From positions 34,071 through 98,070 of the forward strand of contig DATKWQ010000040.1 of NCBI GenBank assembly GCA_035529455.1: a stretch of 64,000 nt of DNA, read 5' to 3'. Shown here one piece after another: positions 2,427 to 36,252 of this stretch. The translations under genes were made by a program, and so were the position numbers. How positions within the stretch are numbered: position 1 is the first letter of the stretch; every line of letters starts with the position of its first letter. The notes under the pieces were generated by a model. It saw nothing but the letters and a program-made list of their open reading frames with translations, searched no databases and was not told the DNA's origin. This DNA comes from Thermoplasmata archaeon. GTDB taxonomy: Archaea > Thermoplasmatota > Thermoplasmata > UBA10834.

Positions 2427-5400
2427 CTACTCGGGTGGCGCCGCTGGCTCCTCCACTTCTGGCGGGGCCATGCCTTCCATCTCGTCCATGCCGGCAGCCG
2501 AAGAATCGCCCTTGTCCTTCCTGTGTCTCAGCAACAGTGCGACCGCCGCGACGGCTAGCACGAGCCCAAGGCCAATCCCCAGCAGCAACATGCTGCTGAT
2601 GCCATCCTTGGTCTTTGTGACCGTGACTTCGGTGGACAGAGATGACCAAGTCATGTCGGAGTGGTCCTTGTCATCCTTGACGACCACGACGGCTTCGTAC
2701 GGTGTAATACTGCCCGCTTCGTATGCGTGGCTGAAAGTCACCGTGGTGTTCGTCTGTGGGGAAAGGTCCCTCTGGATGACCTGCGGGTCGGAGCCATCGC
2801 CGAAAGTCATCGTCACTGTGACATTGTCACCCTCTTTGTCCGCGATGGTTACGTTGAAGTATATCATCTCTCCGGGTGCGTAGGCGTCCCCGGCAGGGGC
2901 ACTCTTTCCAATCAGGCCGACGATGGTCGGTTTCCTGTTCGCATCCTGAACGCTGACATCCGCGGTCTCGCTGACGTTGTTGCCTCTCCCGTCATCCACG
3001 TATACGGTGAGCACGAACTCCCCGATCTGAGTGTAGGTGTGTGGTGCCCCAAAGTCCGAATCAGGGACACCTTCGGTCATAGCGGTGTCGTCTCCCCAAT
3101 CGTACCACACGCTCAACGGGTCACCATCTGGGTCATAGATACTCACAGGTTTGACCGTCTTCGACTGGTTGTAGTAGAACGTGTAAGTGTCTGCCAAGGT
3201 GAACGACGGTGGCTCGTTGGCGACGATGAGGACGTCCCTTGTCGCAGAGACATTGGTCGTGCCATCATACACATGAGCCGTGACGATGTAGGTGCCTTCT
3301 TCGACATATGTATGGGAGAATTCGGCGTACTGCATCTCTGTGGTGTCTCCGGTGGTTTCGAGAGTCTCGTCGTCCTCGTCATCTCCGAAATCCAACGTGA
3401 TTGTCAGCTCATTCTCGTTGGCGTCAGATGCGCCGACCATCAGTATGACGGGGACGTCGACAGCCCCTGGGCTCGGGCTCTGCCATATCGTGATGGACCC
3501 TGGTGGAGCGTCGGAACCTGGGGCCAGAATGGTCGCGGAAACAGCATCGGATGATACGTTGTTGCCTTCACCATCGTCGACCCACACGATTACATCGTAT
3601 GTTCCGGCCGAGTCCCAGGTATGAGTTGTGGTGGATGCCACCTCCGCTGCACGATCCATGGCCGTATCGTGCTCTGTCACGCTATATGTACCATCTCCCC
3701 AATCCCAAGTGAACTTCAGGACGTCCGGGTCCTGGTCGCTCGCTATCGCTTCACACGTGACCGCCTGGCCCTGCAAGCCGGAAATATCCGAAACCATGAT
3801 GATCACAGGCTCTGTGTTCCCAAAGACCTCGAACTCTGAGATTGTGGCAGAGACGTTGTGGTATTGGTTGGTTTCCACGTCATAGCCGTCCCAGACTGAC
3901 AATTCAACCTCGTATGTGCCGGGGGCATCCCAGACGTGCGTCTGCTCGTCTGTCACAAGAGTATCGTTCGCCACGGGCTTGTAGGGGGTGGTTGTAGACG
4001 CGCCATCATCCCAATCCCATGTGAACAGCAGACCTTCACCATCTGGGCCCTGTTCATGATCCATCGCCTCGGCAGACCAAGTCGCCTCCTCGCCGACGTA
4101 CACCCTGTACGGCTGCCAGGTCATGCTTTCGATCTCCGGGCCAAGGTTCGCCTCGGAAACAACATTGATGGTCGACAACTTCACAGTTTCATAGTCGTGA
4201 TTGTCGTCCTTCAATCCCACTCTGAGAGTGTACGTGCCGACTGTGTCGAAAGTCTGTTGCCACTCCTTGGTCTGTGGGATGGTGGTATCTCCATCGGCAT
4301 ATTGGATGAGTGCGGCGACTTCGACTGAGTCCGCATCTGTAATCGACCAGTTCACTGTGATCTCGTCGCCGTCAGCGTCCTTGACGCTTATGACGAACGT
4401 CACTTCCTCGCCCACCTCCGGTTCATAGATGGGCTGCGGTGGTGAGTCGAAAGCCGGCGCGGAACCGCTGCCTGTGGGCTCGAGGTCATACCAGAGCCAA
4501 AGCATGTCCGAGATGATGGATCTCGCGACGTGCTGCTCCCAGTTGCCCCATCCTGTGAATCTCGCGTTTGTGAACGCATAGAGTCCGTTCGGGTGCAGCG
4601 GCGGGAATTCCGTGTACGTGTCGTATATCGCCTGCTGCAGCCAGTCGACAAGCACCTTCCTTTCATCCTTGTCTGTCGTCTTCAGAGCTTGGTCGAACTT
4701 TTCGTCGAATTCGCATCGGGCAACGCCCTCATCCTCGTCGGCCCACCACCATCCGTCGGGTTCGTCGAGGCCGCCGGGGCATATCGGACCGACGCAGTTG
4801 TATCCACCCACCCTGACCTGGTCGGTCAGCCAGCAGGCGAGGTTGGACAGAGGCTCCGGTCCCCAGTACCATGACCAAACCCAGAGGTCGTAGTTGCAGT
4901 TGTACCACTCATCGTTGGTCATGATCCCTTCGGACAACGCGTCATACAAGAACTCTATGCCTGCCTGTTTCGCCATTGAAACCCATGCCGACCCAACATA
5001 TCCATAGCCTGGGTCTGAATCAGGCACATGCACGTCGAACGTAAGGCGTTCGCCAACTTCAACTTCATCAGGATACATCTGGACTGGCATGCAGTTTGCC
5101 GTGGTCACAAGGTAATTACTATCATCAGGATCAGGCGCATAGCCGTTATCGAGGAGCAGCTGCTTTGCCGCTGCAGGGTCGTACGGGAGCGGGTTCTCCA
5201 GGTCCGCATGCCAGAAGCCCTGGCTGAGAACCGAGTCAGCAGCCTCAGGTAGCCCCATGAAGTACGTGTCTATGATTGTCTGTCTGTCCAGCGTCATCCC
5301 GATTGCCTGCCTGACGACCGGGTCAAGCAGTTTGTAGTCTCCGTCGTCAGCGTAATTCAGTGCATCCCTGATTTCAGGGGGGATGGCGTTTATCGCGATG

Positions 5401-6368
5401 TCGTATATGCCCAACTCTGTGGTCACCTGCTTGGTGATTGACACATCTGCGGTATCGTCGGCTATCTTAGTCCATGCGCTTTCCGATGCACCTGTGACAT
5501 CGACGACATCGACTGCGCCAGCATTTATCTCAAGGGCTATCGTGTCTATGTTCGTGTACACGCGATATCGAATTCCAGCGAAGTCGATGTCTCTCTCCTC
5601 GTCGTAGTCCGCTTCAGCGTGGTAGTTGGGCGCCTTCACGAAGTCGTACCATGTCCCTTTGTCGTACTCGCCGACATAGAACGGTCCGCTGCCGATGAGG
5701 AAGTCGGGGTCCATCCTGCCTAGGATGCCGCCTCCCTTGATCTCAGACCACTGGTACTCGGGGACTATCGGGACCCAGATGAGGTCATCGATAAGCGTGG
5801 CCTTTGTGTACTCGGTGTCGATTCTGACCTGATATGGGCTGTCCGTCCTGGACGCGTCCCATCGCGCACCGTTGTCCGTGACGTTCACTCCTGACACGTT
5901 GTACAGATAGTAGTCCCATGCGTTCCCAGGATTGGCCATTATCATCTCGAAAGTGTACTCGACATCGAAAGCGGTCAGCGGATGAGTGGTGTCCGTTGGG
6001 TTCTCCGCGTTTCTGAAGTAGGCGTTCTCTGTGATGTTGATGAAAGTGCTCATATTGCCCGCTGGCCAATTCACCTGGTAGTAGTCCATCGCAAGGTGGT
6101 TCTCAATCACGTTCCAATCCTCGTCGTACTGGAACAGCGTGCTGAAGACCAGGTTGTACGCAACCCAATCAGACACCATCTCCACCAAGAGTGGATTCCA
6201 GTTCTTGAAATCCGAAAGCCAGCCCACCTGCACGTACTCTTCTCCCTCAGCGGCGGCTTCCTCGATGAGCGGCTCATCAGAGCCTATGTTCGGTATGGCC
6301 GATACGGCCATGACTGCTATCAGAAAAACAGCTAGCGCTCTTGTCCCACTGGTAACTCTGTTCCCCAT
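2427..6368 (-). CDS. Giant surface-anchored ABC substrate-binding protein: family-5 (peptide/Ni) SBP domain, then 5 or more PKD-like repeats, a C-terminal TM helix and an acidic proline-rich tail
   Basis: 1313 aa. N-terminal signal/TM. Roughly the first 550 aa look like a family-5 SBP. Repeated FTWDWDDG, FTWDWGDGTY, LDFGDDEDDE, YDWGDDTAMTEG and MTFGDGSDPQ motifs are PKD-domain signatures. C-terminus is LGIGLGLVLAVAAVALLLRHRKDKGD...APPEVEEPAAPPE (TM, then basic, then acidic/Pro tail). Confidence 0.8.
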   Translation of the reverse strand: MGNRVTSGTRALAVFLIAVMAVSAIPNIGSDEPLIEEAAAEGEEYVQVGWLSDFKNWNPLLVEMVSDWVAYNLVFSTLFQYDEDWNVIENHLAMDYYQVNWPAGNMSTFINITENAYFRNAENPTDTTHPLTAFDVEYTFEMIMANPGNAWDYYLYNVSGVNVTDNGARWDASRTDSPYQVRIDTEYTKATLIDDLIWVPIVPEYQWSEIKGGGILGRMDPDFLIGSGPFYVGEYDKGTWYDFVKAPNYHAEADYDEERDIDFAGIRYRVYTNIDTIALEINAGAVDVVDVTGASESAWTKIADDTADVSITKQVTTELGIYDIAINAIPPEIRDALNYADDGDYKLLDPVVRQAIGMTLDRQTIIDTYFMGLPEAADSVLSQGFWHADLENPLPYDPAAAKQLLLDNGYAPDPDDSNYLVTTANCMPVQMYPDEVEVGERLTFDVHVPDSDPGYGYVGSAWVSMAKQAGIEFLYDALSEGIMTNDEWYNCNYDLWVWSWYWGPEPLSNLACWLTDQVRVGGYNCVGPICPGGLDEPDGWWWADEDEGVARCEFDEKFDQALKTTDKDERKVLVDWLQQAIYDTYTEFPPLHPNGLYAFTNARFTGWGNWEQHVARSIISDMLWLWYDLEPTGSGSAPAFDSPPQPIYEPEVGEEVTFVISVKDADGDEITVNWSITDADSVEVAALIQYADGDTTIPQTKEWQQTFDTVGTYTLRVGLKDDNHDYETVKLSTINVVSEANLGPEIESMTWQPYRVYVGEEATWSAEAMDHEQGPDGEGLLFTWDWDDGASTTTPYKPVANDTLVTDEQTHVWDAPGTYEVELSVWDGYDVETNQYHNVSATISEFEVFGNTEPVIIMVSDISGLQGQAVTCEAIASDQDPDVLKFTWDWGDGTYSVTEHDTAMDRAAEVASTTTHTWDSAGTYDVIVWVDDGEGNNVSSDAVSATILAPGSDAPPGSITIWQSPSPGAVDVPVILMVGASDANENELTITLDFGDDEDDETLETTGDTTEMQYAEFSHTYVEEGTYIVTAHVYDGTTNVSATRDVLIVANEPPSFTLADTYTFYYNQSKTVKPVSIYDPDGDPLSVWYDWGDDTAMTEGVPDSDFGAPHTYTQIGEFVLTVYVDDGRGNNVSETADVSVQDANRKPTIVGLIGKSAPAGDAYAPGEMIYFNVTIADKEGDNVTVTMTFGDGSDPQVIQRDLSPQTNTTVTFSHAYEAGSITPYEAVVVVKDDKDHSDMTWSSLSTEVTVTKTKDGISSMLLLGIGLGLVLAVAAVALLLRHRKDKGDSSAAGMDEMEGMAPPEVEEPAAPPE

Positions 6369-9710: not shown

Positions 9711-9935
9711 ATGAGCGCCTCTCAGTATGCCCTTCACGCATGGCCTTCGATCCGAGCCAGATTGCGTCTACAAGAACGCACTTTCCGCAATCGTATCGTA
9801 ATGTCGAAAGCTGCACGAAATGTCGATTTATGGTCATAACGATAGAGACAAGTGATTTATCCCTTCGGCGCAATTCCGGGTCGAGCATCTTCGGTGCCCA
9901 AGGGCGCATCGAGGATTTCGGGGGGATATGAATTG

Positions 9936-12635
9936 ATGGAATGCTCTATACGTGCTGGCAGAGAACATCTTTTTGGGCGACGGTTTGTATTTGTGTCTTC
10001 TTTGATTGCCCTCACTATGGTCGTGGCGTCTTTCGCTGTGCCTGTGGGTAATATGACCGGCAGGGCGGTAGCCGACGACCCGATAATATACTCCATCGGG
10101 ACGACGCTGGTGCCCGACGATTTCAACCCGTTCGAGATGACGACCGGAATCTCGTACTCCGTGCTGTGGATGACGTACGAGTTCCTGATCACTCCAGGGC
10201 CGAAGCAGATGGAGCCCCATGAGCAGCTCGCGAGTTCCTGGGAGGCGACCGAAGGCAGCACAGTCTGGACTTACCATCTCGTGACGGATTCCGTGTTCCA
10301 TGATGGCCATCCTGTGACAGCGGACGATGTCGCCTTCACGTTCAACCTGATAATTGACAATGATGTCGAATGCGGCATGTTCGCGGCGTACGTCAAGAAC
10401 ATCACGAGCGTGACAGCACCAGACCTGTACACTGTGGTGATGGAGCTTGAGTCTCCTAGAGCGGACATGGAATGCCTTACCGTGCCGATTCTCCCTGAAC
10501 ATCTCTGGGGCCAGATAGATACAACGGATCTTGCGAATGTGGATATGTTCAACGAGGACGTGTTCCCCGACGGACCGATAGGCTCTGGTCCATTCAGGCT
10601 GGTAGAGTATCAGCGAACTGAAGGACTAGTCAGGATGACGGCATGGGACCAGTATCACTGGGGAAAGGTCAACATAGACGAGCTGAGGATGGTCATATAC
10701 ACCCAGCCCTCGGCGATGATAACAGCCCTGGAGACAGGGGCCATCGACCTTGCGATGGGAGTGCCTCCGACGTTCTGGGACTCCGTTATAAGTCTGGATA
10801 ACATAGATGGACAGGCCGCGCCCAGCCTAGACCTCACGGAGTTCGGATCCAACTGCGCTCCAAAGGAAATCAGGGAGAGCGTCAACGAACAGGGAAAGCC
10901 GAATTTCCCTCAGGCGAGTGACAACTACGAAACCTGCAACCGTGCGGTCCGACAGGCAATGGCGATTGCGATAAACGAGACGTACATCAACGAGCATATC
11001 ATGCTTAATCTGTCGACGGTCGGCAGCACGCTCATTCCTCCAGCAACGCCTTTCTGGCATTTGTATCTGGATGAGGACGAGAAGTGGTCTAACGATTTGG
11101 ACGAGGCGCGGCAGCTCCTCGAGGACGCAGGGTACAAGTACATCAGCGATGACGAAGTGCGGGAAAACGAAACCAGCGGCGAGCTTCTGGATTTCGACTT
11201 CTACTACATCAGCTCTACGGAGCAGGACACTAATGCCGCACACAAGATCTCGGACTGGTTGGCTGATATTGGCATTAAGGCAGAGCCACAAGGAGTCATG
11301 GAAGGGACTCTCTACACATACTGGTTCGGCATGGTCTACGATCTTTTCATCTGGAACTGGCAGCCAGATGTCGACCCAACGTTCTTGCTGTCCGTTCTGA
11401 CGACTGATGAGATACCTAAGGACTCGAAGGACAAGACTGCTTGGTCCGACTGCTACTACTCCAACCCAGTGTACGACCAGCTGTTCATCGATCAGCAGAA
11501 AGCGTTGAACATTACCCAGCGTCAGGAGATAGTACACGAGATGCAGAGAATTGTCTACTATGACTGCCCGTACGAGATGCTCTGGTACCCATCTGGACTG
11601 GACGCCTACAGGACCGACGAGTTCACGAACTTCCCGGATATGACGGCGAATGCAGGCATAAGCCCAGACACCTTCTGGTTCTACTACGAGATCTACAAGA
11701 TCGGCACGCCTGTAGCGCCGAGAAACGTCAACGCGGGCGAGGACACAACCTGCTTCTTGGGTGACGTGATGGCTTTCACCGGCGATGCGACGGATGTCAA
11801 CGACGCTTTCGACACGTTAGCGTGGGAGTGGGAGTTCGACGACGCAGGAGAGGTCATCCCGCTCGACGGTCAGACGGTCGTGTACACCTTCGACAACATC
11901 GGTACAGTGAACGTGACTCTCACCGTGACAGATCCTGGAGGCTTGAGCGGGACAGACACCATGACAGTTACGGTCGCGGAAGTTCCCGAAGATGCGGGAT
12001 GGATCAAGGGCTATGTGAACTCGAGCACTGGAAGCCCAGTTGTCGGCGCCAATGTCGTTGTCGGGACGGTGTCGCATCAGACGGATGCCACGGGGCTGTA
12101 CAGCTTTACGATATCCGAGGGTGTCTATACCGTCAACGTGACCAAATCTGGATTCACTGGCGACACCGAAAATGTGACGGTCGTAGCGGGAGCTATCTCG
12201 TGGCGGAACTTCACGCTTGCCGCTGTCGCTGGCAATGTGAAGGGCTATGTAATCGATCTTGAGACCGGACTGGGTATCGAGAATGCCATAGTGGAGATGA
12301 CTTATGGTGGTGAGGAAGAGAGCTATACTACCAATGCCACAGGATACTTCGAGTTCAACGTTGTTCCGGCTGGCACTTATAACATAACGGCAATGAAGTC
12401 GGGATACGACGAGAACAGCTCCAGCGTGACCGTTGTGGCTGGCGAGACCACGATGGCAGAGATCCAGCTCGAAGTCGCGAGTTCTGGTGGATTATCGACA
12501 GCGGCGATGGCGGTAATCGGCGCCCTCGTCGTCGTGATTGCAGCTGTCGCGGCGATATCTCTGCTCAAACGCAGGAAGGGCGAGATGCCTCCATCGTCTG
12601 ACGAAGAAGGCTTCGAACCGCCACCGCCAGAGTAG
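9936..12635 (+). CDS. Surface-anchored family-5 ABC substrate-binding protein fused to PKD-like and CarboxypepD_reg-like repeats, C-terminal TM and acidic Pro-rich tail
   Basis: ORF 9852..12635. The start at 9936 (MECSIRAGREHLFGRRFVFVSSLIALTMVVASFA) gives a normal signal peptide. The ATG at 9852, 23 bp downstream of an ATTTATGG TATA-like box, is an alternative leaderless start. The SBP_bac_5-like core is followed by a WEWEFDD..VNVTLTVTDPGGLSG PKD-like repeat and two Ig-like GYV..G.PV.GA.V carboxypeptidase-regulatory-like repeats. C-terminus is ALVVVIAAVAAISLLKRRKGEMPPSSDEEGFEPPPPE. Confidence 0.8.
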   Translation: MECSIRAGREHLFGRRFVFVSSLIALTMVVASFAVPVGNMTGRAVADDPIIYSIGTTLVPDDFNPFEMTTGISYSVLWMTYEFLITPGPKQMEPHEQLASSWEATEGSTVWTYHLVTDSVFHDGHPVTADDVAFTFNLIIDNDVECGMFAAYVKNITSVTAPDLYTVVMELESPRADMECLTVPILPEHLWGQIDTTDLANVDMFNEDVFPDGPIGSGPFRLVEYQRTEGLVRMTAWDQYHWGKVNIDELRMVIYTQPSAMITALETGAIDLAMGVPPTFWDSVISLDNIDGQAAPSLDLTEFGSNCAPKEIRESVNEQGKPNFPQASDNYETCNRAVRQAMAIAINETYINEHIMLNLSTVGSTLIPPATPFWHLYLDEDEKWSNDLDEARQLLEDAGYKYISDDEVRENETSGELLDFDFYYISSTEQDTNAAHKISDWLADIGIKAEPQGVMEGTLYTYWFGMVYDLFIWNWQPDVDPTFLLSVLTTDEIPKDSKDKTAWSDCYYSNPVYDQLFIDQQKALNITQRQEIVHEMQRIVYYDCPYEMLWYPSGLDAYRTDEFTNFPDMTANAGISPDTFWFYYEIYKIGTPVAPRNVNAGEDTTCFLGDVMAFTGDATDVNDAFDTLAWEWEFDDAGEVIPLDGQTVVYTFDNIGTVNVTLTVTDPGGLSGTDTMTVTVAEVPEDAGWIKGYVNSSTGSPVVGANVVVGTVSHQTDATGLYSFTISEGVYTVNVTKSGFTGDTENVTVVAGAISWRNFTLAAVAGNVKGYVIDLETGLGIENAIVEMTYGGEEESYTTNATGYFEFNVVPAGTYNITAMKSGYDENSSSVTVVAGETTMAEIQLEVASSGGLSTAAMAVIGALVVVIAAVAAISLLKRRKGEMPPSSDEEGFEPPPPE

Positions 12636-15675: not shown

Positions 15676-15717
15676 CCAACGCAGCCACTGTCTGCGAACT
15701 CAAACCCCTTTCCTTTC

Positions 15718-15738
15718 CCGCCCCTATGGCCTTTTCTC
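15718..15738 (+). repeat. Copy 1 of the 21-bp direct repeat CCGCCCCTATGGCCTTTTCTC, preceded by AAACCCCTTTCCTTTC
   Basis: Exact 21-mer. First of 9 copies spread over 15718..21236. Confidence 0.8.
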
Positions 15739-16050
15739 CGGAGAAGACCACGAGTTCTCCTTAGGTTGGTGTTCTCGCCGTCTCAATAGGAGATATAACA
15801 ATACCAGCCCCCCAACAACAGGTCCTGTGCCCAAGGCAAGTTCCAGGTATGTCAGTTCCAAAGGAGTACCTCGCGCCAGCCATGTCATCCAGATCAGGAG
15901 ACCTATCACCACTGAGACTGTCGCAACGACCGCATATATGTCTCGTTCTTGCTGTCCGCCTGTTTTGCAGTATGGACAATACGGCCTATCAAGAGAGATG
16001 TCATTAGAGGGTCTCTTGCACACAGGACATATCACTCCGACTCTGGGCAT
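15724..16050 (-). CDS. Zinc-ribbon (CPVC...CPYC) membrane protein, hypothetical
   Basis: 108 aa. N-terminal CxxC-x16-CxxC, then two TM helices. Its stop codon lies inside repeat copy 1. Confidence 0.4.
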   Translation of the reverse strand: MPRVGVICPVCKRPSNDISLDRPYCPYCKTGGQQERDIYAVVATVSVVIGLLIWMTWLARGTPLELTYLELALGTGPVVGGLVLLYLLLRRREHQPKENSWSSPEKRP

Positions 16051-16112
16051 TTTCGCTCATCTCAGCAGACAAGATAGCGCTTGCTCAACCTTATCGTTTC
16101 TTCGCTGGAATT

Positions 16113-16214
16113 CCGCCCCTATGGCCTTTTCTCAAAAGAATGGACGTGCGGCCGCCGGGCCGCGCACCCTGAGATAGTCAGTCTCCCTTTTTCTGATTTC
16201 AATCAGCGGGGAAT
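16113..16214 (+). repeat. Extended repeat unit A (about 102 bp): the 21-bp repeat plus a conserved extension containing GTGCGGCCGCCGGG
   Basis: Aligns over about 100 bp with units at 18079..18180 and 20845..20937 at roughly 85-90% identity. Contains a 14-nt identity to the 3' acceptor/T-stem end of the tRNA-Gly gene at 21278..21353, and a CTCCCTTTTTCTGATTTCAATCA segment. Confidence 0.8.
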
Positions 16215-16285
16215 CGGCCTAGCCTTGTCCCAAGCCTTATATCTTCATAGATGCTCGAAGAAGCCGGTGTTGCGAGGCGAATCCT

Positions 16286-17284
16286 ATGATGATCGAAGTC
16301 AGCGGAGCACCGGAGATTGATGGCCTTGTATTCAGGCGATTCGAAGACAAATCAGATTATTCGGTGATGTCGTCTGTGGGAAGAAGGAGCTGGGAAGCTG
16401 ATGGAGTCGAGAACATCGAAACCGAGGAGGAGCTGGCAAGTGAATACGATAATCTTCTAAATCGGAATCCGTCATCGGAGGTGATAATCGCCGAAGTCAA
16501 TGGAGATCCCGTGGCGTATGGACGAATTTGGCCCGAACTGGACAGAAACGGCGAGCGAGAGTTCTGGCACATTGCTCATGTCTTGCCTGAATGGCGCAAG
16601 ACGGCATTGCGCCTGACAATTTTTCGATTCAACGAGGCACAGATCCGGTTCATATCGAAGAACCAACCCTGGCCTGGGAAGACCTCTCTTGGGGCATGGG
16701 CTTTGGACGAACCGAATGATTGGAGGGAGATGGTCCTCTCAGAAGGATATTCAACCGTAATGCAATTCTATGAGATGATTCGGCCGAATATCGAGAACAT
16801 ACCGGACAATCCCCTTCCCGAAGGGCTTGGGCTGCGAGCAGCCAAACCTGAACACTACTCAGAGATATGGAATGCGCGGAAAGAAGCCTTGCGAGAGAAG
16901 CCCTGGTTCGTTGAAAGCCGATATGACAGAGAACACTACGAGCTTTGGCTGAACGAACCAACTTTCATGCCTGATCTCTGGCAAGTCGCATGGGACGGCG
17001 ACCGCGTAGTGGGCATGATTGAAAACCATGAACCACTTGAAAACGAAGCTTACGACCGAAAGAGAGGTCATACTCAGATGATATTTGTGTTGCCCGAATG
17101 GCGAAGGCGAGGATTGGCGAAAGCCTTGCTCGCAAAGAGCCTTGTATTGATGCGAGAGAGGGGATTGGAGGAAGCGACTCTGGATGTTGAAACGCGGAAC
17201 ACTTCAGGCGAAATACAGCTCTACGAAGGAATAGGCTATAGGGTCGCTAGGAAGTACGCGCACTACAAGAAAACCATAGAATAG
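16286..17284 (+). CDS. GNAT-family N-acetyltransferase (tandem GNAT-like halves)
   Basis: 332 aa. Two acetyltransferase-like halves; the second carries the R/Q-x-x-G-x-A CoA-binding signature (WRRRGLAKALL). Confidence 0.6.
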   Translation: MMIEVSGAPEIDGLVFRRFEDKSDYSVMSSVGRRSWEADGVENIETEEELASEYDNLLNRNPSSEVIIAEVNGDPVAYGRIWPELDRNGEREFWHIAHVLPEWRKTALRLTIFRFNEAQIRFISKNQPWPGKTSLGAWALDEPNDWREMVLSEGYSTVMQFYEMIRPNIENIPDNPLPEGLGLRAAKPEHYSEIWNARKEALREKPWFVESRYDREHYELWLNEPTFMPDLWQVAWDGDRVVGMIENHEPLENEAYDRKRGHTQMIFVLPEWRRRGLAKALLAKSLVLMRERGLEEATLDVETRNTSGEIQLYEGIGYRVARKYAHYKKTIE

Positions 17285-17318
17285 AGTCGAGACATAGCCA
17301 AGCCCCCTTCTCTTCCTT

Positions 17319-17339
17319 CCGCCCCTATGACCTTTTCTC
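17319..17339 (+). repeat. Copy 3 of the direct repeat (CCGCCCCTATGACCTTTTCTC, 1 mismatch)
   Basis: Lies between the GNAT gene stop (17284) and the stop of the minus-strand gene (17354). Confidence 0.8.
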
Positions 17340-17353
17340 AGGTGGGGAGTGCC

Positions 17354-17992
17354 CTATCGCGTTTCAGAAAATGTCAGCGCGATGCCCAAGACCGATGCCA
17401 ACAGCTCCAGGCACTTGATGGTATGAACATCCAGAAACTTGCCGTCGGTTGTGCCTGAGAGTTCTATCCATCCAAGAAGCGCGCCACCCTTGCCGAGAAT
17501 TCTCACATCGATATAGTCACCCTCTATCGTTCCGTCCAGAGATTTGCGCGAAGACTGCAACATCAACTCCCTGTTGAATGTGCTCTCCTCGTCTTTGCCG
17601 TAGGGATTGTCCTCGACGAGAAACAACCTTGTTAGGCTACTTATCTGTGCGAACGTGTACCGTTCTGGATCTTCACACTGTTCAAGAGTATAGGCGAGTT
17701 GTTTGTGAGCTTCCCATGAAACGTCAGTCAAGCCGGCCATGACCTCATATCTGTACAGCCCGTCAGATCGGCTCCTCAAACCCAGGGTGACCTCCTTGAC
17801 CCAAAAACTGTCTCGGATCACATCGACAGCACTCTGGAGGAACTCAGACATGCTCAATTGCTGGTCTGCAAGAGCGGCAATCAATGAACGCACACAATCG
17901 AGGCGCTCGTTCGCTGGATTGGCGCTATCATACTGATAGTTCAGGCTCATCCTTTTCTTAATCAGCTCAGGATCTATTACCTGGTCTTGCAT
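17354..17992 (-). CDS. Hypothetical protein (possible small ligand-binding/GAF-like fold; uncertain)
   Basis: 212 aa, soluble, no recognised motif. Flanked on both sides by repeat copies. Confidence 0.35.
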   Translation of the reverse strand: MQDQVIDPELIKKRMSLNYQYDSANPANERLDCVRSLIAALADQQLSMSEFLQSAVDVIRDSFWVKEVTLGLRSRSDGLYRYEVMAGLTDVSWEAHKQLAYTLEQCEDPERYTFAQISSLTRLFLVEDNPYGKDEESTFNRELMLQSSRKSLDGTIEGDYIDVRILGKGGALLGWIELSGTTDGKFLDVHTIKCLELLASVLGIALTFSETR

Positions 17993-18078
17993 AGCTAGCC
18001 CAACTCGGCGAAGCGCCTATGTCATTCTTCGCGATGAAGGAGAAATGGACTTCCAATAGATTGTTCTTTCTCTTCCCT

Positions 18079-18180
18079 CCGCCCCTATGGCCTTTTCTCA
18101 AAAGAATGGACGTGCGGCCGCCGGGCCGCGAACCCTGCGACAGCCAGTCTCCCTTTTTCTGATTTCAATCAGCGGGGAAT
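18079..18180 (+). repeat. Extended repeat unit B (about 102 bp), followed by tail element TGACCGGAGCCAAACCCCTTTCC
   Basis: Same architecture as unit A. Contains GTGCGGCCGCCGGG. Confidence 0.8.
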
Positions 18181-18520
18181 TGACCGGAGCCAAACCCCTT
18201 TCCTTTTCGGGTGGGCGATTATCAATCGTGGTATGACCAGATTAGGTCGCTTATGAGCATCGTTGTGCCACGTAGTTCAAGTTGCTGGGGAGAAGGAAAA
18301 GGGGGTTGGATGCGGACCCCAGCGACCTTTGCCAACATTTGATAGCCGTACCACAAAGGACTGTACCCCTCACACCCTAGTGATGGGCAGAGGGGCACAA
18401 AGGCATCCAGCGAGACTGTCGGAAATACAGATGCCCTCGATGGTGAAACACCAAGGAAGTTGGAACATGAAGAAGGAATTCGAGAGTGAATTGGCGAAAG
18501 AGGTCCCCGAGCCGAAGAGA

Positions 18521-18829
18521 ATGAGTAGGGCTTGGTTTCCCTTGGCGCTTTGCGCTGCCCTGGTGGTCAGCGGGGCGTTTGCCGTGACAGGCGCATTGGC
18601 CGACCCAAACGGAAACCAGACAGGCGACCAAGATGGTGAGCCTGACAAGGATCAACTCCAGCTCCAGGACGGTTCGTGCGGCGACGATTGTGACGGAATC
18701 TGTGACAACGACGCAGAGACGCTCGAGACTGTTCTCGGTGAGTGTGAAGACCCTGAGTTCGATTACGGAGAACCAGGGCCTCATACTTCTCAGGTCTACC
18801 AGGTAGGACCTTACGCCAACGCTCCCTGA
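18521..18829 (+). CDS. Small secreted acidic cysteine-rich protein, hypothetical
   Basis: ORF 18263..18829. Likely start is the Met at 18521, giving the signal peptide MSRAWFPLALCAALVVSGAFAVTGALA. The mature part is D/E-rich with a CGDDCDGICDND...GEC motif. Confidence 0.4.
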   Translation: MSRAWFPLALCAALVVSGAFAVTGALADPNGNQTGDQDGEPDKDQLQLQDGSCGDDCDGICDNDAETLETVLGECEDPEFDYGEPGPHTSQVYQVGPYANAP

Positions 18830-18871
18830 ACTTTGGCGACCGAAACCCTTTGTTCTTACAGGAGGGGTTAA

Positions 18872-19159
18872 TTGCCCCTCATCAAACCATTTCGTCTTTT
18901 CGCATTAACGATTCACCTCTGGGTGATGGGTGGTGGAGTCCCTTACGAACATTTATCGTCTTCGAGAAAGGTCTCTTGTCCAATGGGATTCACAGGACTG
19001 CCGCCGCCGCTCACCAATCAAAGGAATAGAAGAACTGACGCTCCTCTGACAAGCGTAGAAGTGGTGTGGTCTGTCAGATTGAAGCGCGTAGCCGCTGTGA
19101 TAGTCCTAATCATCGTTCTGTTCACTTTGCTGCGCCTCCTCTTTGACGCAATTCTTTGA
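18872..19159 (+). CDS. Small hypothetical membrane protein
   Basis: 95 aa with N- and C-terminal hydrophobic segments. Weak support (ORF only). Confidence 0.2.
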   Translation: MPLIKPFRLFALTIHLWVMGGGVPYEHLSSSRKVSCPMGFTGLPPPLTNQRNRRTDAPLTSVEVVWSVRLKRVAAVIVLIIVLFTLLRLLFDAIL

Positions 19160-19269
19160 GATTCCTCCCAGAGACAGAGGATCGGAAACCAAGGCTCTCT
19201 CGGGAAGAGAATGCGTTTTATCGCGCCTTTGGGAGGCAACCGGAAACCAGAGCTAAATCCCTTTCTTCT

Positions 19270-19289
19270 CCGCCCCATGGCCTTTTCTC
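19270..19289 (+). repeat. Copy 5 of the direct repeat (CCGCCCCATGGCCTTTTCTC, 1-nt deletion), fused directly to the tail element GGGGAATTGACCGGAGCTAACCCTTTC
   Basis: Reads like unit B with the roughly 80-bp middle deleted. Confidence 0.75.
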
Positions 19290-19391
19290 AGGGGAATTGA
19301 CCGGAGCTAACCCTTTCATTCTTTATGATGTTGAACGATCTGACAAACGCGCACTAGTCCTCTAAATACCGCGCGCAGAATTGAAGATGAT

Positions 19392-19477
19392 GCCCCGGCC
19401 GTAGAATCGCCGAACGCAACGATCCATCAGATCGTACGGGTATTCACCCGTTGCAGGTTCGACTCCCGCCCGGGGCG
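19392..19477 (+). ncRNA. tRNA-like element (7-bp acceptor stem GCCCCGG/CCGGGGC, canonical T-arm GCAGG-TTCGACT-CCCGC, anticodon-like and variable hairpins, no convincing D-arm); possible pseudo-tRNA or att remnant
   Basis: Hand folding. Perfect 7-bp acceptor pairing; GTTCGACTC matches the GTTCRANYC T-loop consensus; a 5-bp stem with a 7-nt loop (CCATCAG); an extra 6-bp hairpin. 86 nt, no CCA. Not confirmed as a functional tRNA. Confidence 0.25.
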
Positions 19478-19576
19478 CTCACCTTCAGCCATAAAAAGCG
19501 GTTCTAGGCTATATCTATCTTTTCAGGAGAAATCGCGCTTTGATAATGTCTGCTGGCTCTGGGATAGCCAAGGATT

Positions 19577-19596
19577 CGCCCCTATGGCCTTTTCTC
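19577..19596 (+). repeat. Copy 6 of the direct repeat (CGCCCCTATGGCCTTTTCTC)
   Basis: Immediately downstream of the stop of the minus-strand gene 19605..20324. Confidence 0.8.
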
Positions 19597-19604
19597 AAAT
19601 TGAG

Positions 19605-20324
19605 TCACGCCGAAGACTTCACTCCCTGCTGCATTCGTCGCGCGACCATGAATAGGACAATGGACACACACACCCAAGCGACTAAGCGTAGATCGTCAGC
19701 TAAGCCTTGAAGTCTCAGCCATCCTTCCGTGTCTAGGTCCGTTTGTACTTCCATGAAGAATAGACGCAGGCCAAATGCTGTTGTTACACAGGCAAGTGAG
19801 AGGATAATCAAGAGTCTAATGCGTGAGAGTGAAAGATGGGCCAGGCATACGGGTTTCATGCCAAATCTCTGTTTCATCAGACTGCCATGGACCAACAACA
19901 AGATTGCCAGGACAACGCATATTTCGCCAATCAGCATAGAATAGAGGTAAGCTTTTCCGAGATGGTTCATCAGGGTTATGTCGTCAGAATCACGAGAATC
20001 CCAAGGGTTTGTGAAATGATCGATGGTTAGTTCATTGTAGTAGACGCAAAATGCGAGAGCCATAACAAAAAGCACGACGCCAGCAAGAGCTACGATTGTC
20101 GCTGCTGTGTATTGGCTAAGTCCTATTGGTCTTCTCGGGGCTTGCGCCTGAATTGAGGAGAGATGTCCATTGGGGGCGGTAAGAACAGAGCTCATCTCCT
20201 CTCCGTTGCTCTGAGAAGAAGCATGCGGTTCTCTTAGACTCTCACCGCATTGCCCGCAGTATACGATATGTTCAGGATTCTCGTGTCCACAATTCGCGCA
20301 CTCACGCACCATTTCCTCAACCAC
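19605..20324 (-). CDS. Zinc-ribbon membrane protein (N-terminal CANCGHEN...CGQCG; 5-6 TM), hypothetical
   Basis: 239 aa. CxxC-x10-CxxC N-terminus followed by multiple TM helices. Same overall architecture as 15724..16050. Confidence 0.4.
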   Translation of the reverse strand: MVEEMVRECANCGHENPEHIVYCGQCGESLREPHASSQSNGEEMSSVLTAPNGHLSSIQAQAPRRPIGLSQYTAATIVALAGVVLFVMALAFCVYYNELTIDHFTNPWDSRDSDDITLMNHLGKAYLYSMLIGEICVVLAILLLVHGSLMKQRFGMKPVCLAHLSLSRIRLLIILSLACVTTAFGLRLFFMEVQTDLDTEGWLRLQGLADDLRLVAWVCVSIVLFMVARRMQQGVKSSA

Positions 20325-20338
20325 CGTGTAATAACCGT

Positions 20339-20359
20339 CCGCCCCTATGACCTTTTCTC
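20339..20359 (+). repeat. Copy 7 of the direct repeat (CCGCCCCTATGACCTTTTCTC)
   Basis: Between the start of 19605..20324 and the stop of 20381..20737. Confidence 0.8.
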
Positions 20360-20380
20360 AGGGCACTTGTGAGTATTGCC

Positions 20381-20737
20381 TCAGATTAGGTCTAGTTTCC
20401 TGCCAGCAATGATGTATGCAGCTAATCCCACGCATGTCGCAATCGATACCGCACCCGCAGTGTACCAGCCAAGCATTTCTTGGCTAGCGAGTCCAAGAGC
20501 CCAAATCGCCGCAAAGCATAACGCTCCTACGAATGGAAACAAGATAAACCATGACAAATCAAGAAGACGTTCCTTCACCGAGCCTTCCCCCCCGAAAGGA
20601 GCGCCTGAGGAAAACCACCTCGAGCCTTCCTTCTCGGAGACATATGGCGGTTCCACTTGGCTGATATTTGAGGCTGTGTGGAATCGTGACCCAATTCGGT
20701 CGGTTCTCTTCTGGGGGTTACTCTGAATAGTCGGCAT
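20381..20737 (-). CDS. Small membrane protein, hypothetical
   Basis: 118 aa, 2-3 TM helices. ORF-only support. Confidence 0.3.
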   Translation of the reverse strand: MPTIQSNPQKRTDRIGSRFHTASNISQVEPPYVSEKEGSRWFSSGAPFGGEGSVKERLLDLSWFILFPFVGALCFAAIWALGLASQEMLGWYTAGAVSIATCVGLAAYIIAGRKLDLI

Positions 20738-20844
20738 CTCTACATCACCGGATAGCCATTTCCTAGCGACGCCATTGGCTCACCCGCGTGACTACTATTC
20801 AAGTGCGCTGATGAAGTACCTTTCTATGGTCTTCCCATCCACTT

Positions 20845-20937
20845 CCGCCCCTATGGCCTTTTCTCTGAGAAATGGACGTGCGGCCGCCGGGCTGCGGACC
20901 CTGCGTCAGCCAGACTCCCTTTTTCTGATTTCAATCA
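20845..20937 (+). repeat. Extended repeat unit C (about 93 bp)
   Basis: Aligns with units A and B. Contains GTGCGGCCGCCGGG and CTCCCTTTTTCTGATTTCAATCA. Confidence 0.8.
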
Positions 20938-21001
20938 AGTGGCATTTCTGCCTGGGAATCCAAGGCAAGAGCTATAACGCTGAGGGCTTCTTTCGCTGTC
21001 A

Positions 21002-21208
21002 ATGACTGTCATTGCATCCTCCAGAGTCTCTAGCGAGGATCATCCTCGGATTCGCCAGAAACCCAAGAAGCACGGAGTGCCTCGGGTTGGATCGTGGGAG
21101 AATGTGACGAAAGCGAGCAGACTCTCGAAGCCAATGTCGTGGAAAGCCTGGATTATCATATTCACGCTGATTCTGCTGATAGTCTTCATCCTGAGTTGGC
21201 TTGCCTGA
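21002..21208 (+). CDS. Very small membrane protein, hypothetical
   Basis: 68 aa with a C-terminal TM helix. Weak. Confidence 0.2.
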   Translation: MTVIASSRVSSEDHPRIRQKPKKHGVPRVGSWENVTKASRLSKPMSWKAWIIIFTLILLIVFILSWLA

Positions 21209-21217
21209 TCCCCCCTT

Positions 21218-21236
21218 GGCCCTATGGCCTTTTCCC
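21218..21236 (+). repeat. Degenerate copy 9 of the direct repeat (GGCCCTATGGCCTTTTCCC), about 40 bp beyond the tRNA-Gly 3' end
   Basis: About 17/19 match to the core repeat. Closest copy to the tRNA. Confidence 0.6.
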
Positions 21237-21277
21237 CCTTGATTGACTGAAAAGACGACCTTGCTGGGTATGTTCAG

Positions 21278-21353
21278 TGGTGCGGCCGCCGGGATTTGAA
21301 CCCGAGTTCTGAGCTTGGCAAGCTCAAGTGATAACCAGCTACACTACAGCCGC
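21278..21353 (-). tRNA. tRNA-Gly (anticodon GCC), CCA encoded
   Basis: Minus-strand sequence GCGGCUGUAGUGUAGCUGGUUAUCACUUGAGCUUGCCAAGCUCAGAACUCGGGUUCAAAUCCCGGCGGCCGCACCA. 7-bp acceptor stem; anticodon stem UGAGC/GCUCA with loop UUGCCAA; T-arm UCGGG-UUCAAAU-CCCGG. 76 nt. Confidence 0.85.
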
Positions 21354-35355: not shown

Positions 35356-36252
35356 TTGATGGCAGCGTTGATTGGCTGCTCTGGGTGGTCCTACGATGAT
35401 TGGGTGGGAAGGTTCTACCCGACAGATATCGCCAATAGGAAGAGCGAGTGGTTTTCATATTACTCGAAGTACTTCCCGACAGTGGAGATAAACTCGACGT
35501 TCTATCGCGTCCCGAACGAGTTTGTCGTGAAGTCATGGATCGAGAAGGGTGGGCATAGGCCTGGATTCGAGTTCTCGGTCAAATTGCCTCAGATGATCAC
35601 GCACGAATCCATCCTCAAGGACGCCCCCGAGAAAGCAGCCGCGTTGGCGTCCAGTTTCGAAGGGCTGTGTATCAAGCCTCTGGCGAACGCCGGGCTCCTG
35701 GGTGGCGTTCTCGTCCAGCTGTCGCCACATTTCAGGTTCGAGGGCGATGCGAGCCTCGGAAGGCTGAGGGCGCTGTTCCAGCTCCTGGACACGGATGCCC
35801 ATGACTATGCGGTTGAGTTCCGCCATCGGAGTTGGCTGAACGAGAAGGGCAACGAGGTCGTGTCAGATGGGTTGGAGGCCATGCAGGAGTTCAAGGTGGC
35901 GAACGTCATCGTGGACGGCCCTGGATTCCCGATCACGAGATCGCTCACCTCGAAGCACGCTTATGTCCGCCTGCACGGCCGCAACTACGACATATGGTTC
36001 AAGGACGAGACTGAGGACGATTACAGGATCAACCGATATGACTACCTCTACACCCTCGAGCAGCTGGGTTCATGGAGACCGAGGATAGAGGAGATTGTGT
36101 CCAACTGCGAGAGGGCGCGTATCTACTTCAACAACCACGGGAGGGCGAAGGCGGTGAAGAACGCGTTCCAGATGATGGACCTCCTCGGGGTAGAGCACGA
36201 ATCGAAAGAGATAGACATACAGGACCAGATGACTCTGAGCGGCTTCAGCTGA
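35356..36252 (+). CDS. DUF72 (UPF0759, YecE-like) family protein
   Basis: 298 aa. The N-terminus GCSGWSYDDWVGRFYP...VEINSTFYRVP is the DUF72 hallmark. Confidence 0.8.
   Translation: MMAALIGCSGWSYDDWVGRFYPTDIANRKSEWFSYYSKYFPTVEINSTFYRVPNEFVVKSWIEKGGHRPGFEFSVKLPQMITHESILKDAPEKAAALASSFEGLCIKPLANAGLLGGVLVQLSPHFRFEGDASLGRLRALFQLLDTDAHDYAVEFRHRSWLNEKGNEVVSDGLEAMQEFKVANVIVDGPGFPITRSLTSKHAYVRLHGRNYDIWFKDETEDDYRINRYDYLYTLEQLGSWRPRIEEIVSNCERARIYFNNHGRAKAVKNAFQMMDLLGVEHESKEIDIQDQMTLSGFS

Follow-up and report, generated by a model that had tools for sequence, protein, structure and literature searches.

Repeat units near an archaeal tRNA-Gly gene are likely attR-type junctions of a tyrosine-integrase element within an island of 21-mer-bounded cassettes

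Results

Anatomy of the repeat units

Three repeat units in a 64-kb stretch of Thermoplasmata archaeon DNA (hereafter the window) are likely to be attR-type junctions (P-O-B′) of a tyrosine-integrase element at tRNA-Gly, whose integrase has been lost; the units lie within an island of cassettes punctuated by a 21-mer. How the units are built, that they are homologous to tRNA flanks and integrase 3′ ends, and that attP is P′-O-P in relatives are directly demonstrated. The units occupy the places given in the original prediction (16113-16214, 18079-18180 and 20845-20937) and belong to a single repeat family, units B and C being 94% and 81% identical, respectively, to unit A over 108 nt. With their full arms, they and the tRNA locus are as follows.

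16113-16222 (+): unit A; 21-mer 16113-16133, trailer 16134-16145 (the native tRNA-Gly trailer, reverse complement), core O 16146-16159 (the 3′-terminal 14 nt of tRNA-Gly), P arm 16160-16222; minus strand, ..SPLIEIRKRETDY..
18079-18209 (+): unit B; 21-mer 18079-18099, trailer 18100-18111, O 18112-18125, P arm 18126-18209 with GGGGAATTGACCGGAGCCAAACCCCTTTCC in its distal part; minus strand, EKERGLAPVNSPLIEIRKRETG
20845-20941 (+): unit C; 21-mer 20845-20865, trailer 20866-20877, O 20878-20891, P arm 20892-20941
21221-21277 (+): 3′ end, now decayed, of a gene for a tyrosine integrase (..SPLID*KDDLAGYVQ), converging on and abutting the tRNA-Gly 3′ end
21278-21353 (−): intact tRNA-Gly(GCC) on the attL side, with the 14-mer of the units as its last 14 nt

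The 14-mer GTGCGGCCGCCGGG, predicted to be identical to the tRNA-Gly 3′ end, is exact in all three units and in the tRNA gene; the plus strand holds exactly four copies, one per unit and one at 21280-21293 in tRNA-Gly(GCC), against a chance expectation of 0.05, and four copies were reached in 0/100 shuffles. All three units also have an exact copy of the tail CTCCCTTTTTCTGATTTCAATCA. Of the inverted repeat described in the tail (CTGATT/AATCAG, 6 bp), both halves are complete only in A and B; C reads AATCAA. The proposed modular deletion variants are real: the 21-mer at 19270 is joined straight to a tail (19291-19313 matches 18174-18196 at 91%), and the copy at 15718 is directly preceded by a tail element (15701-15716 equals 18191-18206). 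These modules are pieces of an attP arm.

The units carry the native flank of the tRNA gene

In two related loci (L066 and L074), tRNA-Gly is followed by a 12-13-nt trailer and then by the 21-mer. The 21-mer, trailer and 14-mer of the units match this real tRNA-Gly 3′ flank in UBA10834 (L074) at 96% over 50 nt, and the displaced 14-mer copies retain the native trailer, forming the direct repeat of a tRNA-targeting element. The window's own tRNA-Gly, unlike these orthologues, continues into CCA and a foreign trailer. At this gene the integrase survives as a 16-codon decayed remnant only, which is the P′ arm, and a degenerate 21-mer (~21216-21237) is fused to the upstream edge of the remnant. 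No intact integrase or resolvase gene is present within the 64-kb window.

The unit tail is an inverted integrase 3′ end

Aligned with tyrosine-integrase genes, the unit tails correspond to the 3′ ends, as an inverted copy of the last ~25-30 codons. The 64-kb window was searched with an nhmmer profile of 33 integrase 3′ ends, all from outside the window, which gave two matches only: 21232-21272 (E=6.8e-6), adjoining tRNA-Gly, and 18142-18184 (E=8e-4), the tail of unit B. The tails of units A and C alone fell below the reporting threshold; tblastn also supports the homology. Moreover, the conservation pattern of the tail tracks the codons of the integrase C-terminus, which argues against the idea that the units encode a structured small RNA, such as a tRNA-like RNA or a split-tRNA 3′ half, using the acceptor and T-arm of tRNA-Gly. 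A GC-rich hairpin (GTGCGGCC..GGCCGCAC) can be drawn, and two related loci (L007 and L072) have a hairpin made from another tRNA end. The T-loop, however, is not conserved as TTCRANY, ARAGORN and Rfam found nothing at the units, and RNAalifold on 18 copies returned −5.75 kcal/mol with a covariation term of −0.06, in agreement with the earlier statement that a conserved RNA structure is not supported. We regard such an RNA as highly improbable.

The related loci show where such tails come from. Integrases there (Pfam Phage_integrase in L029, L034 and L017) have their stop codon a few nt from intact opposite-strand tRNAs (1-3 nt, or 5-6 by ARAGORN), namely Arg-CCT in L029 and L138, Ala-TGC in L136, L137, L144 and L145, and Ala-CGC in L139, with L080 a further case; the homologues in this position are intact in L136-L139, L144 and L145, while L029 holds a truncated 139-aa fragment. 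The attP of these relatives consists of the integrase 3′ end, a tRNA piece and an inverted copy of that end (P′-O-P), found contiguously in L099, L017, L121/126/132, L151, L156 and L183/184, and the unit tails align with the P arms of those in L099, L151, L156 and L184. Because the integrases end near tRNAs and attP has this composition, we read the units as attR-type junctions (P-O-B′). The same tail is joined to the 3′ ends of other tRNAs in L007/L072 and L087/L044. In L067, an insert of 1.2 kb lies between a unit and tRNA-Gly and is bordered by the 13-14-nt repeat and by inverted integrase-3′ remnants. A resolvase gene lies directly upstream of the integrase gene in at least 25 loci.

The 14-mer includes GCGGCCGC, a GC-rich NotI-like palindrome, which might let its identity with the tRNA pass for coincidence. 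There is next to no chance of this: the copy number, the continuation of similarity into the trailer, 21-mer and T-arm-like flanks (the L074 match), the integrase-end matches by nhmmer and the recurrence of the same architecture with other tRNAs refute it. The refuting condition set out beforehand does not hold: similarity runs well past the 14-mer, and there is a cognate family of recombinases. The original reading of the units as integrase scars gains support from both the native tRNA flank and the integrase-derived tails.

Family-2 casposons generate direct repeats of 14 nt at tRNA 3′ ends, and it is conceivable that the units are casposon- or transposon-like footprints with the 14-mer as target-site duplication and the tails as terminal inverted repeats. 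Inverted tail sequences do flank cassette c8 of the window and the 1.2-kb insert of L067. These inverted sequences, however, share homology with the 3′ coding ends of tyrosine-integrase genes, 10-22 nt of tRNA-like sequence lie between them and the repeat, arms and core are contiguous as P′-O-P beside intact integrase genes, and no Cas1-like or PolB-like ORF was noticed among the clustered ORFs of the loci. We consider this origin very unlikely.

A proposed course of events

On the attR reading, each unit would have arisen when a tyrosine-integrase element recombined with the tRNA-Gly 3′ end. B′ would be the chromosomal trailer of tRNA-Gly together with the 21-mer found natively after tRNA genes of this lineage, O the 14 nt common to element and tRNA, and P the element's attP arm, which repeats in inverted form the last ~25-30 codons of the element's integrase gene. 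This integrase would then have been lost from the locus, leaving 16 decayed codons beside the intact tRNA-Gly on the attL side. Unit C, the copy nearest the tRNA, is probably the in-situ attR scar of the last insertion. Units A and B, which have an identical trailer, speak in part against a simple course, since they are internal and yet carry B′ (native trailer and 21-mer), where plain tandem integration predicts P′; an extra step is therefore needed, and repeated simple insertion fails to account for the native tRNA flank on internal units. They may have been carried within cassettes cut and pasted at 21-mers, or may derive from satellite elements whose attP included O, trailer and 21-mer. 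A further point against is that the identity with the tRNA covers 14 nt only, which is short for archaeal att cores. Neither circular nor excised forms were found, and 23 full-length metagenome contigs had no terminal overlaps.

A tRNA-anchored island of cassettes

The units belong to a tRNA-anchored island of 5.5 kb with eight mostly single-gene cassettes (15739-21215; contents from gene calls and Pfam) bounded by 21-mers, of which those outside the units are included below.

15718-15738 (+): 21-mer, distal array end, preceded by a P-arm distal fragment at 15701-15717 (CAAACCCCTTTCCTTTC)
15739-16112: cassette c1, no called gene
16134-17318: c2, GNAT gene 16286-17284 (+)
17319-17339 (+): 21-mer, G>A variant, between the GNAT cassette and c3
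17340-18078: c3, ORF 17354-17992 (−)
18100-19269: c4, ORFs 18467-18829 and 18983-19159 (+)
19270-19289 (+): 21-mer with 1-nt deletion, joined to a P-arm distal fragment at 19290-19320; a unit deletion variant
19290-19575: c5, tRNA-like element
19576-19596 (+): 21-mer
19597-20338: c6, zinc-ribbon membrane ORF 19605-20312 (−)
20339-20359 (+): 21-mer, G>A variant
20360-20844: c7, ORF 20381-20737 (−)
20866-21215: c8, ORF 21002-21208 (+)

The 21-mer CCGCCCCTATGGCCTTTTCTC occurs in seven copies at ≤1 mismatch, besides the degenerate ones at 19270-19289 and ~21216-21237, all on the plus strand and all within 15718-21237; the other 58 kb of the window have none. Its sharp-edged motif is TTCCGCCCCTATGGCCTTTTCTCA. 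A logo from 266 aligned copies shows sharp edges, a length of ~23 nt and no conserved flank, and the repeat covaries with lineage, being CCGCCCCTATGGCCTTTTCTC here and CCTCCCCTATGGKCTTTTCCGAGGC in freshwater-sediment relatives. Approximately 180-195 further cassettes are bounded by it in at least 16 sediment Thermoplasmata MAG species; such arrays are seen in freshwater relatives too. Intervals in the arrays are 200-3000 bp and contain ORFs; a CRISPR array, with its 25-50-nt non-coding spacers, was rejected on that account.

As judged by sequence comparison, homology between genomes begins and ends inside the 21-mers, where the ends of HSPs pile up at offsets −2..+1 and +18..+21. Cassettes likewise appear singly in unrelated contexts: 23 homologous pairs have unrelated flanks, the 195 cassettes include 19 multi-member families, and only one pair of arrays, L168/L169 from the same sample series, shares two cassettes. 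Cassette c3 and its counterpart in SG225.bin4 (L105) share 96.9% identity, whereas the folC region of the same two genomes is ~71% identical.

Could the 21-mer be a signal at the level of transcription, such as a factor-dependent terminator or insulator, with cassette boundaries and the scattered units due only to occasional homologous recombination between its copies and no dedicated recombinase? It lies just past the stop codons of most cassette ORFs (0-50 nt) and past tRNA 3′ ends (5-100 nt), its plus strand has CCTTTTCTC, like an archaeal oligo-T terminator, and a recombinase for it was not found, none recurring within the arrays or at their ends. On the other hand, its orientation is constant, with 17/18 tRNA-proximal copies in one orientation relative to the tRNA and 56/57 copies in integrase loci co-oriented with the integrase gene (~2 expected by chance), although cassette ORFs lie on either strand (111 opposite, 53 the same). 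It also occurs between divergent promoters, where a terminator would not be required, most ORFs and tRNAs have no T run on the strand downstream, and ~23 nt of identity are little for homologous recombination, yet single cassettes have been swapped between species. Together with the confinement of the motif to the island within the window, these points make a transcription signal unlikely.

We infer instead that the 21-mer may be a crossover site for a trans-acting recombinase, for which the conserved resolvase-integrase pair of this element family is the leading candidate; the motif copies examined in integrase loci lie upstream of the integrase gene. The 21-mer shows no dyad symmetry of the kind usual at the crossover sites of tyrosine or serine recombinases. 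It is a serious possibility, somewhat short of an even chance, that the 21-23-nt motif serves an undescribed archaeal cassette-capture system in which tRNA-integrating platforms with a resolvase-integrase pair gather, reshuffle and exchange single-gene cassettes across species, integron-like in function but with an unrelated, non-hairpin site.

Discussion

The units themselves are ordinary integration scars. The locus resembles the archaeal islands and plasmids made by tRNA-targeting tyrosine integrases (non-suicidal, pNOB8-like; PMC8371274; Islander-type, PMC4383910) in its intact tRNA with a displaced 3′ direct repeat, an integrase gene next to the tRNA (a decayed remnant here, intact in relatives), the loss of the integrase after insertion and several elements per locus. 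It differs in that long inverted repeats, one of them the integrase's own last ~25-30 codons, form the attP arms, that the integrase is paired with a resolvase, that cargo sits in 21-mer-bounded cassettes and that internal scars keep the native tRNA flank. SSV-type 'suicidal' integrases (PMC7253208) share an archaeal tyrosine integrase gene tied to attP and a tRNA target. Their attP, however, lies inside the integrase ORF, whereas here the ORF stops a few nt before the tRNA-derived core, so that integration leaves the gene unsplit. Family-2 casposons are alike in the 14-nt repeat at the tRNA 3′ end and in inverted terminal sequences, but no Cas1 or PolB was noticed here and the inverted sequences come from the integrase gene.

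Integrons, including archaeal ones (PMC9668308), are the closest parallel for the cassettes: arrays of mostly single-ORF cassettes with one repeated site in fixed orientation, cassettes shared singly, and a tyrosine recombinase gene beside the array. As in an integron, the cassettes here stand in tandem, have a single ORF for the most part and are individually mobile, as judged by their singly shared occurrence. The site, in contrast, is a linear conserved sequence of 21-23 nt without attC hairpin or R/L boxes; GTTRRRY is on neither strand of the 21-mer, and DNA folds of nine sites ±30 nt gave z-scores from −1.8 to +1.2 and no common hairpin. The ORFs are on both strands, the GNAT and ORF68 cassettes have TATA-like boxes of their own (by eye), and tRNA genes are where the platform itself integrates. 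An IntI-type integrase with attI was not found, the associated integrases matching general Phage_integrase only and abutting tRNAs.

The pdif modules of Acinetobacter plasmids are gene modules between short conserved recombination sites in many contexts, with a recombinase presumed to be encoded elsewhere. The 21-mer cassettes are alike in their short boundary sites and many contexts. The pdif sites, in contrast, are XerC/XerD sites of 28 bp that have dyad symmetry and alternate in orientation; they are plasmid-borne and not tRNA-anchored.

We found no literature description of a widespread archaeal tRNA-integrating family that has an attP made from the inverted integrase 3′ end and encodes an integrase with a resolvase, nor of arrays of individually exchangeable cassettes bounded by a short, sharp-edged, lineage-covarying repeat. 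The 21-mer cassette arrays may represent an undescribed, integron-like route of gene exchange. If the 21-mer is a true recombination site, it would define a second, independent cassette-capture system beside integrons, provide a compact new pair of recombination site and enzyme for archaeal genetics, and give a direct account of how transporters, peptidases and surface proteins are exchanged among uncultured peptide-degrading sediment archaea.

Units A, B and C are probable integrase scars carrying a native tRNA-Gly flank

By alignment, units A, B and C form a single repeat family at the positions of the original prediction, and the 14-mer GTGCGGCCGCCGGG is indeed common to tRNA-Gly and all three units (4 copies found vs 0.05 expected by chance, one per unit and one in the gene).

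16112-16219: unit A
18078-18185: unit B (94%)
20844-20951: unit C (81%)
21278-21353, minus strand: tRNA-Gly(GCC), containing the 14-mer at 21280-21293

Units A and B share 94% identity, the tail CTCCCTTTTTCTGATTTCAATCA is identical in all three, and the module deletion variants proposed at 19270 and 15718 proved to be real in the repeat alignment. Three similar units occur in another species (locus L103; the best is 94% identical to unit A), and the same tail is fused to the 3′ ends of other tRNAs in loci L007/L072 and L087/L044. As had been suspected, a conserved RNA structure was not found when 18 units were analyzed by RNAalifold, and the tRNA was the sole Rfam match at the gathering threshold. 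The long unit was rejected as a general leader of ORFs on the strand of the 21-mer, being present in just 5 of 40 such cassettes.

In the related genome UBA10834 (L074), the sequence 3′ of a genuine tRNA-Gly(GCC) is GTCCATTCTTCTT with the 21-mer behind it, and the units show 96% identity to this flank across 50 nt. The window's own tRNA-Gly, unlike the units, has CCA and a different trailer 3′ of the gene; therefore the units carry a native tRNA-Gly 3′ end together with its flank.

On the minus strand unit B reads EKERGLAPVNSPLIEIRKRETG, and an integrase fragment in L029, which like the integrases of L034 and L017 matches Pfam Phage_integrase, ends with ERSAPAPKLNSPLIETRNDFTGYA and a stop. A DNA profile of 33 integrase 3′ ends, none taken from the window, matched the 64-kb window at two places only: 21232-21272 (+), adjoining tRNA-Gly (E=6.8e-6), and 18142-18184 (-), the tail of unit B (E=8e-4). 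The unit tail is derived from coding sequence.

A metagenome scan with an integrase query gave 80 loci. An intact tRNA lies on the opposite strand within a few nt of the integrase stop codon in L136/137/144/145 (Ala-TGC), L138 (Arg-CCT) and L139 (Ala-CGC), as also in L029 and L080, and in L099, L017, L121/126/132, L151, L156 and L183/184 an integrase 3′ end (P′), a tRNA-derived core of about 30 nt (O) and an inverted integrase 3′ end (P) are contiguous. The unit tail is the P arm of this attP of the relatives, and therefore a unit reads P-O-B′, an attR-type junction in which B′ is the chromosomal trailer plus the 21-mer. The integrase-scar reading of the units thus holds, and they are of a known kind, the scars of a tRNA-targeted integrase. 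Locus L067 represents an occupied site, where a 1.2-kb insert between the unit and tRNA-Gly is flanked by a 13-14-nt repeat and inverted integrase-3′ remnants.

A second type of att arm (CCAAAGACGCGATAAAAC..CATGTACCTAAATCGTCCGAGCCAGTCATTTTGG) was seen on the 3′ ends of other tRNAs beside 21-mers (L034 4290-4375; L017 2530-2623; L072 1105-1186; L006, L084, L154, L168), and the L017 arm is a mirror image of the 3′ end of an integrase from a different subfamily. In L184 (2555-3290; also in L183), a complete P′-O-P accompanies an integrase fragment some 200 nt away from a 21-mer variant, itself 9 nt beyond an intact tRNA-Arg(CCT); thus the element sits behind the 21-mer, its attP unrecombined. Elsewhere, integrase genes are truncated at varying codons with a 21-mer at or within about 70 nt of the break (L055 2254-2274; L029 7478-7498; L063 4529-4549; L097 5367-5387), which suggests that one-sided deletions or secondary-site events took place at 21-mers.

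The 21-mer bounds cassettes that are exchanged singly

The window has seven near-exact copies of the 21-mer and two degenerate ones, all on the + strand within 15718-21237, and the other 58 kb has none. Scanning one genome per species with its 19-nt core gave 105 blocks from 16 archaeal MAGs, of which one is labelled Thorarchaeota and the other 15 bear the label Thermoplasmata, Thermoplasmatota or Methanobacteriota; two single bacterial matches to the core are at chance level. Arrays frequently have 4-10 co-oriented copies per 8 kb, and consecutive co-oriented copies are 200-3000 bp apart, mostly with one ORF between them; the ORF runs against the motif in 111 cases and with it in 53. The 266 aligned copies define a sharp-edged motif, TT/CCGCCCCTATGGCCTTTTCTC/A, with unconserved flanks, and in all-against-all BLAST of the blocks shared segments start at 21-mer offsets -2 to +1 and stop at +18 to +21.

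Neither dyad symmetry nor a hairpin was present in the 21-mer site, and DNA folds of nine sites contained no attC-like hairpin. The crossover point inside the 21-mer could not be placed from the linkage of variants between paired homologous cassettes, and nothing was found in viral contigs scanned with the 21-mer and with the integrase. Conserved "classes" upstream of 21-mers were rejected as parts of the site, being the promoter, 5′ leader and N-terminus (MKCPxCG) of a zinc-ribbon cassette family, whose conserved leader (..GGCTTAAGGGCTTCTCTCC and CCCTCGACCGT..GCGTATGCCATTCC) directly adjoins the 21-mer. Cassettes of this family, encoding membrane or secreted proteins, recur at many loci (for example L083 4944-6497 and L112 4461-5729; flanks in L004, L005, L027, L031, L070). 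The 100-N runs beside 21-mers in CP0707xx "chromosome" records are scaffold gaps and not masking, and open within about 5-50 nt of a 21-mer (L014 5135, L026 6241, L030 6603, L050 4660, L102 1455); the breaks in these assemblies fall at cassette boundaries, as would be the case for populations that are heterogeneous at those points.

The cargo comprises EamA and MFS transporters, C11-like peptidases, beta-helix proteins, GNAT, Lrp-like regulators and zinc-ribbon membrane proteins, without recombinases. When the 1294 ORFs of the 105 blocks were clustered, the recurrent families were cargo and no recombinase recurred inside the arrays; tyrosine recombinases beside 21-mers in L025 and L035 were singletons and were set aside. 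Homologous cassettes in different genomes (23 pairs, 76-97% identity, at least 80% coverage) have unrelated neighbours, and the 195 cassettes include 19 multi-member families, with L168/L169, from the same sample series, as the sole pair of arrays sharing two cassettes. Window cassette c3 (17315-18100) is 96-97% identical to its counterpart in SG225.bin4 (L105), vs about 71% for the folC region of the same genomes. The unrelated neighbours, the unshared arrays and the c3 identity together show that cassettes pass singly, and recently, between species.

The 21-mer keeps a fixed polarity and accompanies a resolvase-integrase pair

Among 25 tRNA genes of the blocks and window, including Arg, Val, Ala, Pro, Gly, Leu and Ile, a 21-mer lies within 100 nt of the 3′ end in 11 and within 600 nt in 6 more; these 17 are all oriented alike relative to the tRNA, and one more copy points the opposite way. 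Relaxing the motif gave 57 copies in the metagenome integrase loci, of which 56 lie on the same strand as the integrase (chance expectation, about 2), in the lineage variant ATCGCCTTT-CCTCCCCTATGGKCTTTTCCGAGGC; the copies examined sit upstream of the integrase and form arrays, for instance five copies in L139. Freshwater-sediment relatives (L108-L187; for example L139 205-5226, L120 3985-5834, L123 859-3095) carry the variant repeat ATCGCCTTT-CCTCCCCTATGG(G/T)CTTTTCCGAGGC, and their arrays sit upstream of a resolvase-integrase pair.

L034 3234-3836 and 2078-3214: resolvase-integrase pair
L017 3691-4296 and 2625-3671: resolvase-integrase pair
At least 25 metagenome loci: resolvase-integrase pair

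In at least 25 loci the resolvase gene (52-76% identical to L034:3234-3836) stops just ahead of the integrase start. The pair consists of a resolvase-type serine recombinase of about 200 aa directly upstream of a tyrosine integrase of about 375 aa, often with a conserved ORFan of about 190 aa ahead that has no Pfam match; the core ORFs of these elements had none either. A search for circular contigs found no terminal overlaps in 23 full-length metagenome contigs.

The window array consists of eight cassettes (c1-c8) between 21-mers at 15739-21215.

From the tRNA outward: tRNA-Gly, O, P′ (16 decayed integrase codons), degenerate 21-mer, c8, unit C
Continued: c7, c6, c5 (tRNA-like pseudogene), c4, unit B, c3, c2 (GNAT), unit A, c1, last 21-mer

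Beyond the last 21-mer lies the chromosome, on the side of the Opp operon, and in L082 a different array is in the same position, between the Opp operon and the array. The GC content of the island is 49-54%, vs 55-57% in the flanks, and the 64-kb window contains no intact integrase or resolvase. Its layout matches that of a resolvase-integrase locus which would have had its recombinase module deleted.

In c5, the tRNA-like element at 19391-19477 (+) combines an acceptor stem of 7 bp with a long variable arm, and its shortened anticodon loop contains UCA. Its Rfam tRNA-Sec score was 21 bits (E=0.08; gathering score 47) and ARAGORN did not call it; most likely it is the relic of an att site or a decayed tRNA. 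At 15971-16105 (+), a possible fragment of an integrase pseudogene (YGQYGLSREMSLEGL.LHTGH..) matches the L029 integrase over residues 69-113 (E=0.025 in the window) and stops 7 nt short of the unit A 21-mer, in a cassette with no JGI gene calls. The rest of the window carries housekeeping genes of a peptide-degrading archaeon (36245-39777 (-), 2427-6368 (-), 9852-12635 (+)). They include a Rad50-like SMC ATPase accompanied by an Mre11-like phosphoesterase, as well as two solute-binding proteins of the Opp type that contain PKD and CarboxypepD_reg domains; several peptidases (S9, M28, M42) are also encoded.

Discussion

Tandem integration and integrase loss have been reviewed (PMC8371274). Plain tandem integration predicts P′-O-P at internal junctions, as in L099, yet units A and B have B′ and the 21-mer. 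Two routes would account for this: segments of the form 21-mer/B′-O-P-cargo/21-mer may have moved as cassettes, or integrase-less satellites, with an attP of O, trailer and 21-mer, may have integrated serially. The 94% likeness of A and B and the three L103 units fit either.

The cassette arrays resemble integrons, of which archaeal examples are known (PMC9668308), but their site has no attC features and no IntI-type integrase was identified; no description of the repeat or of the architecture was found in the literature searched. A 21-mer acting as a transcription signal, with cassettes exchanged by homologous recombination, is a rival explanation; the fixed polarity, sharp edges, co-variation with lineage and exchange of single cassettes lead us to favour site-specific recombination at the 21-mer.
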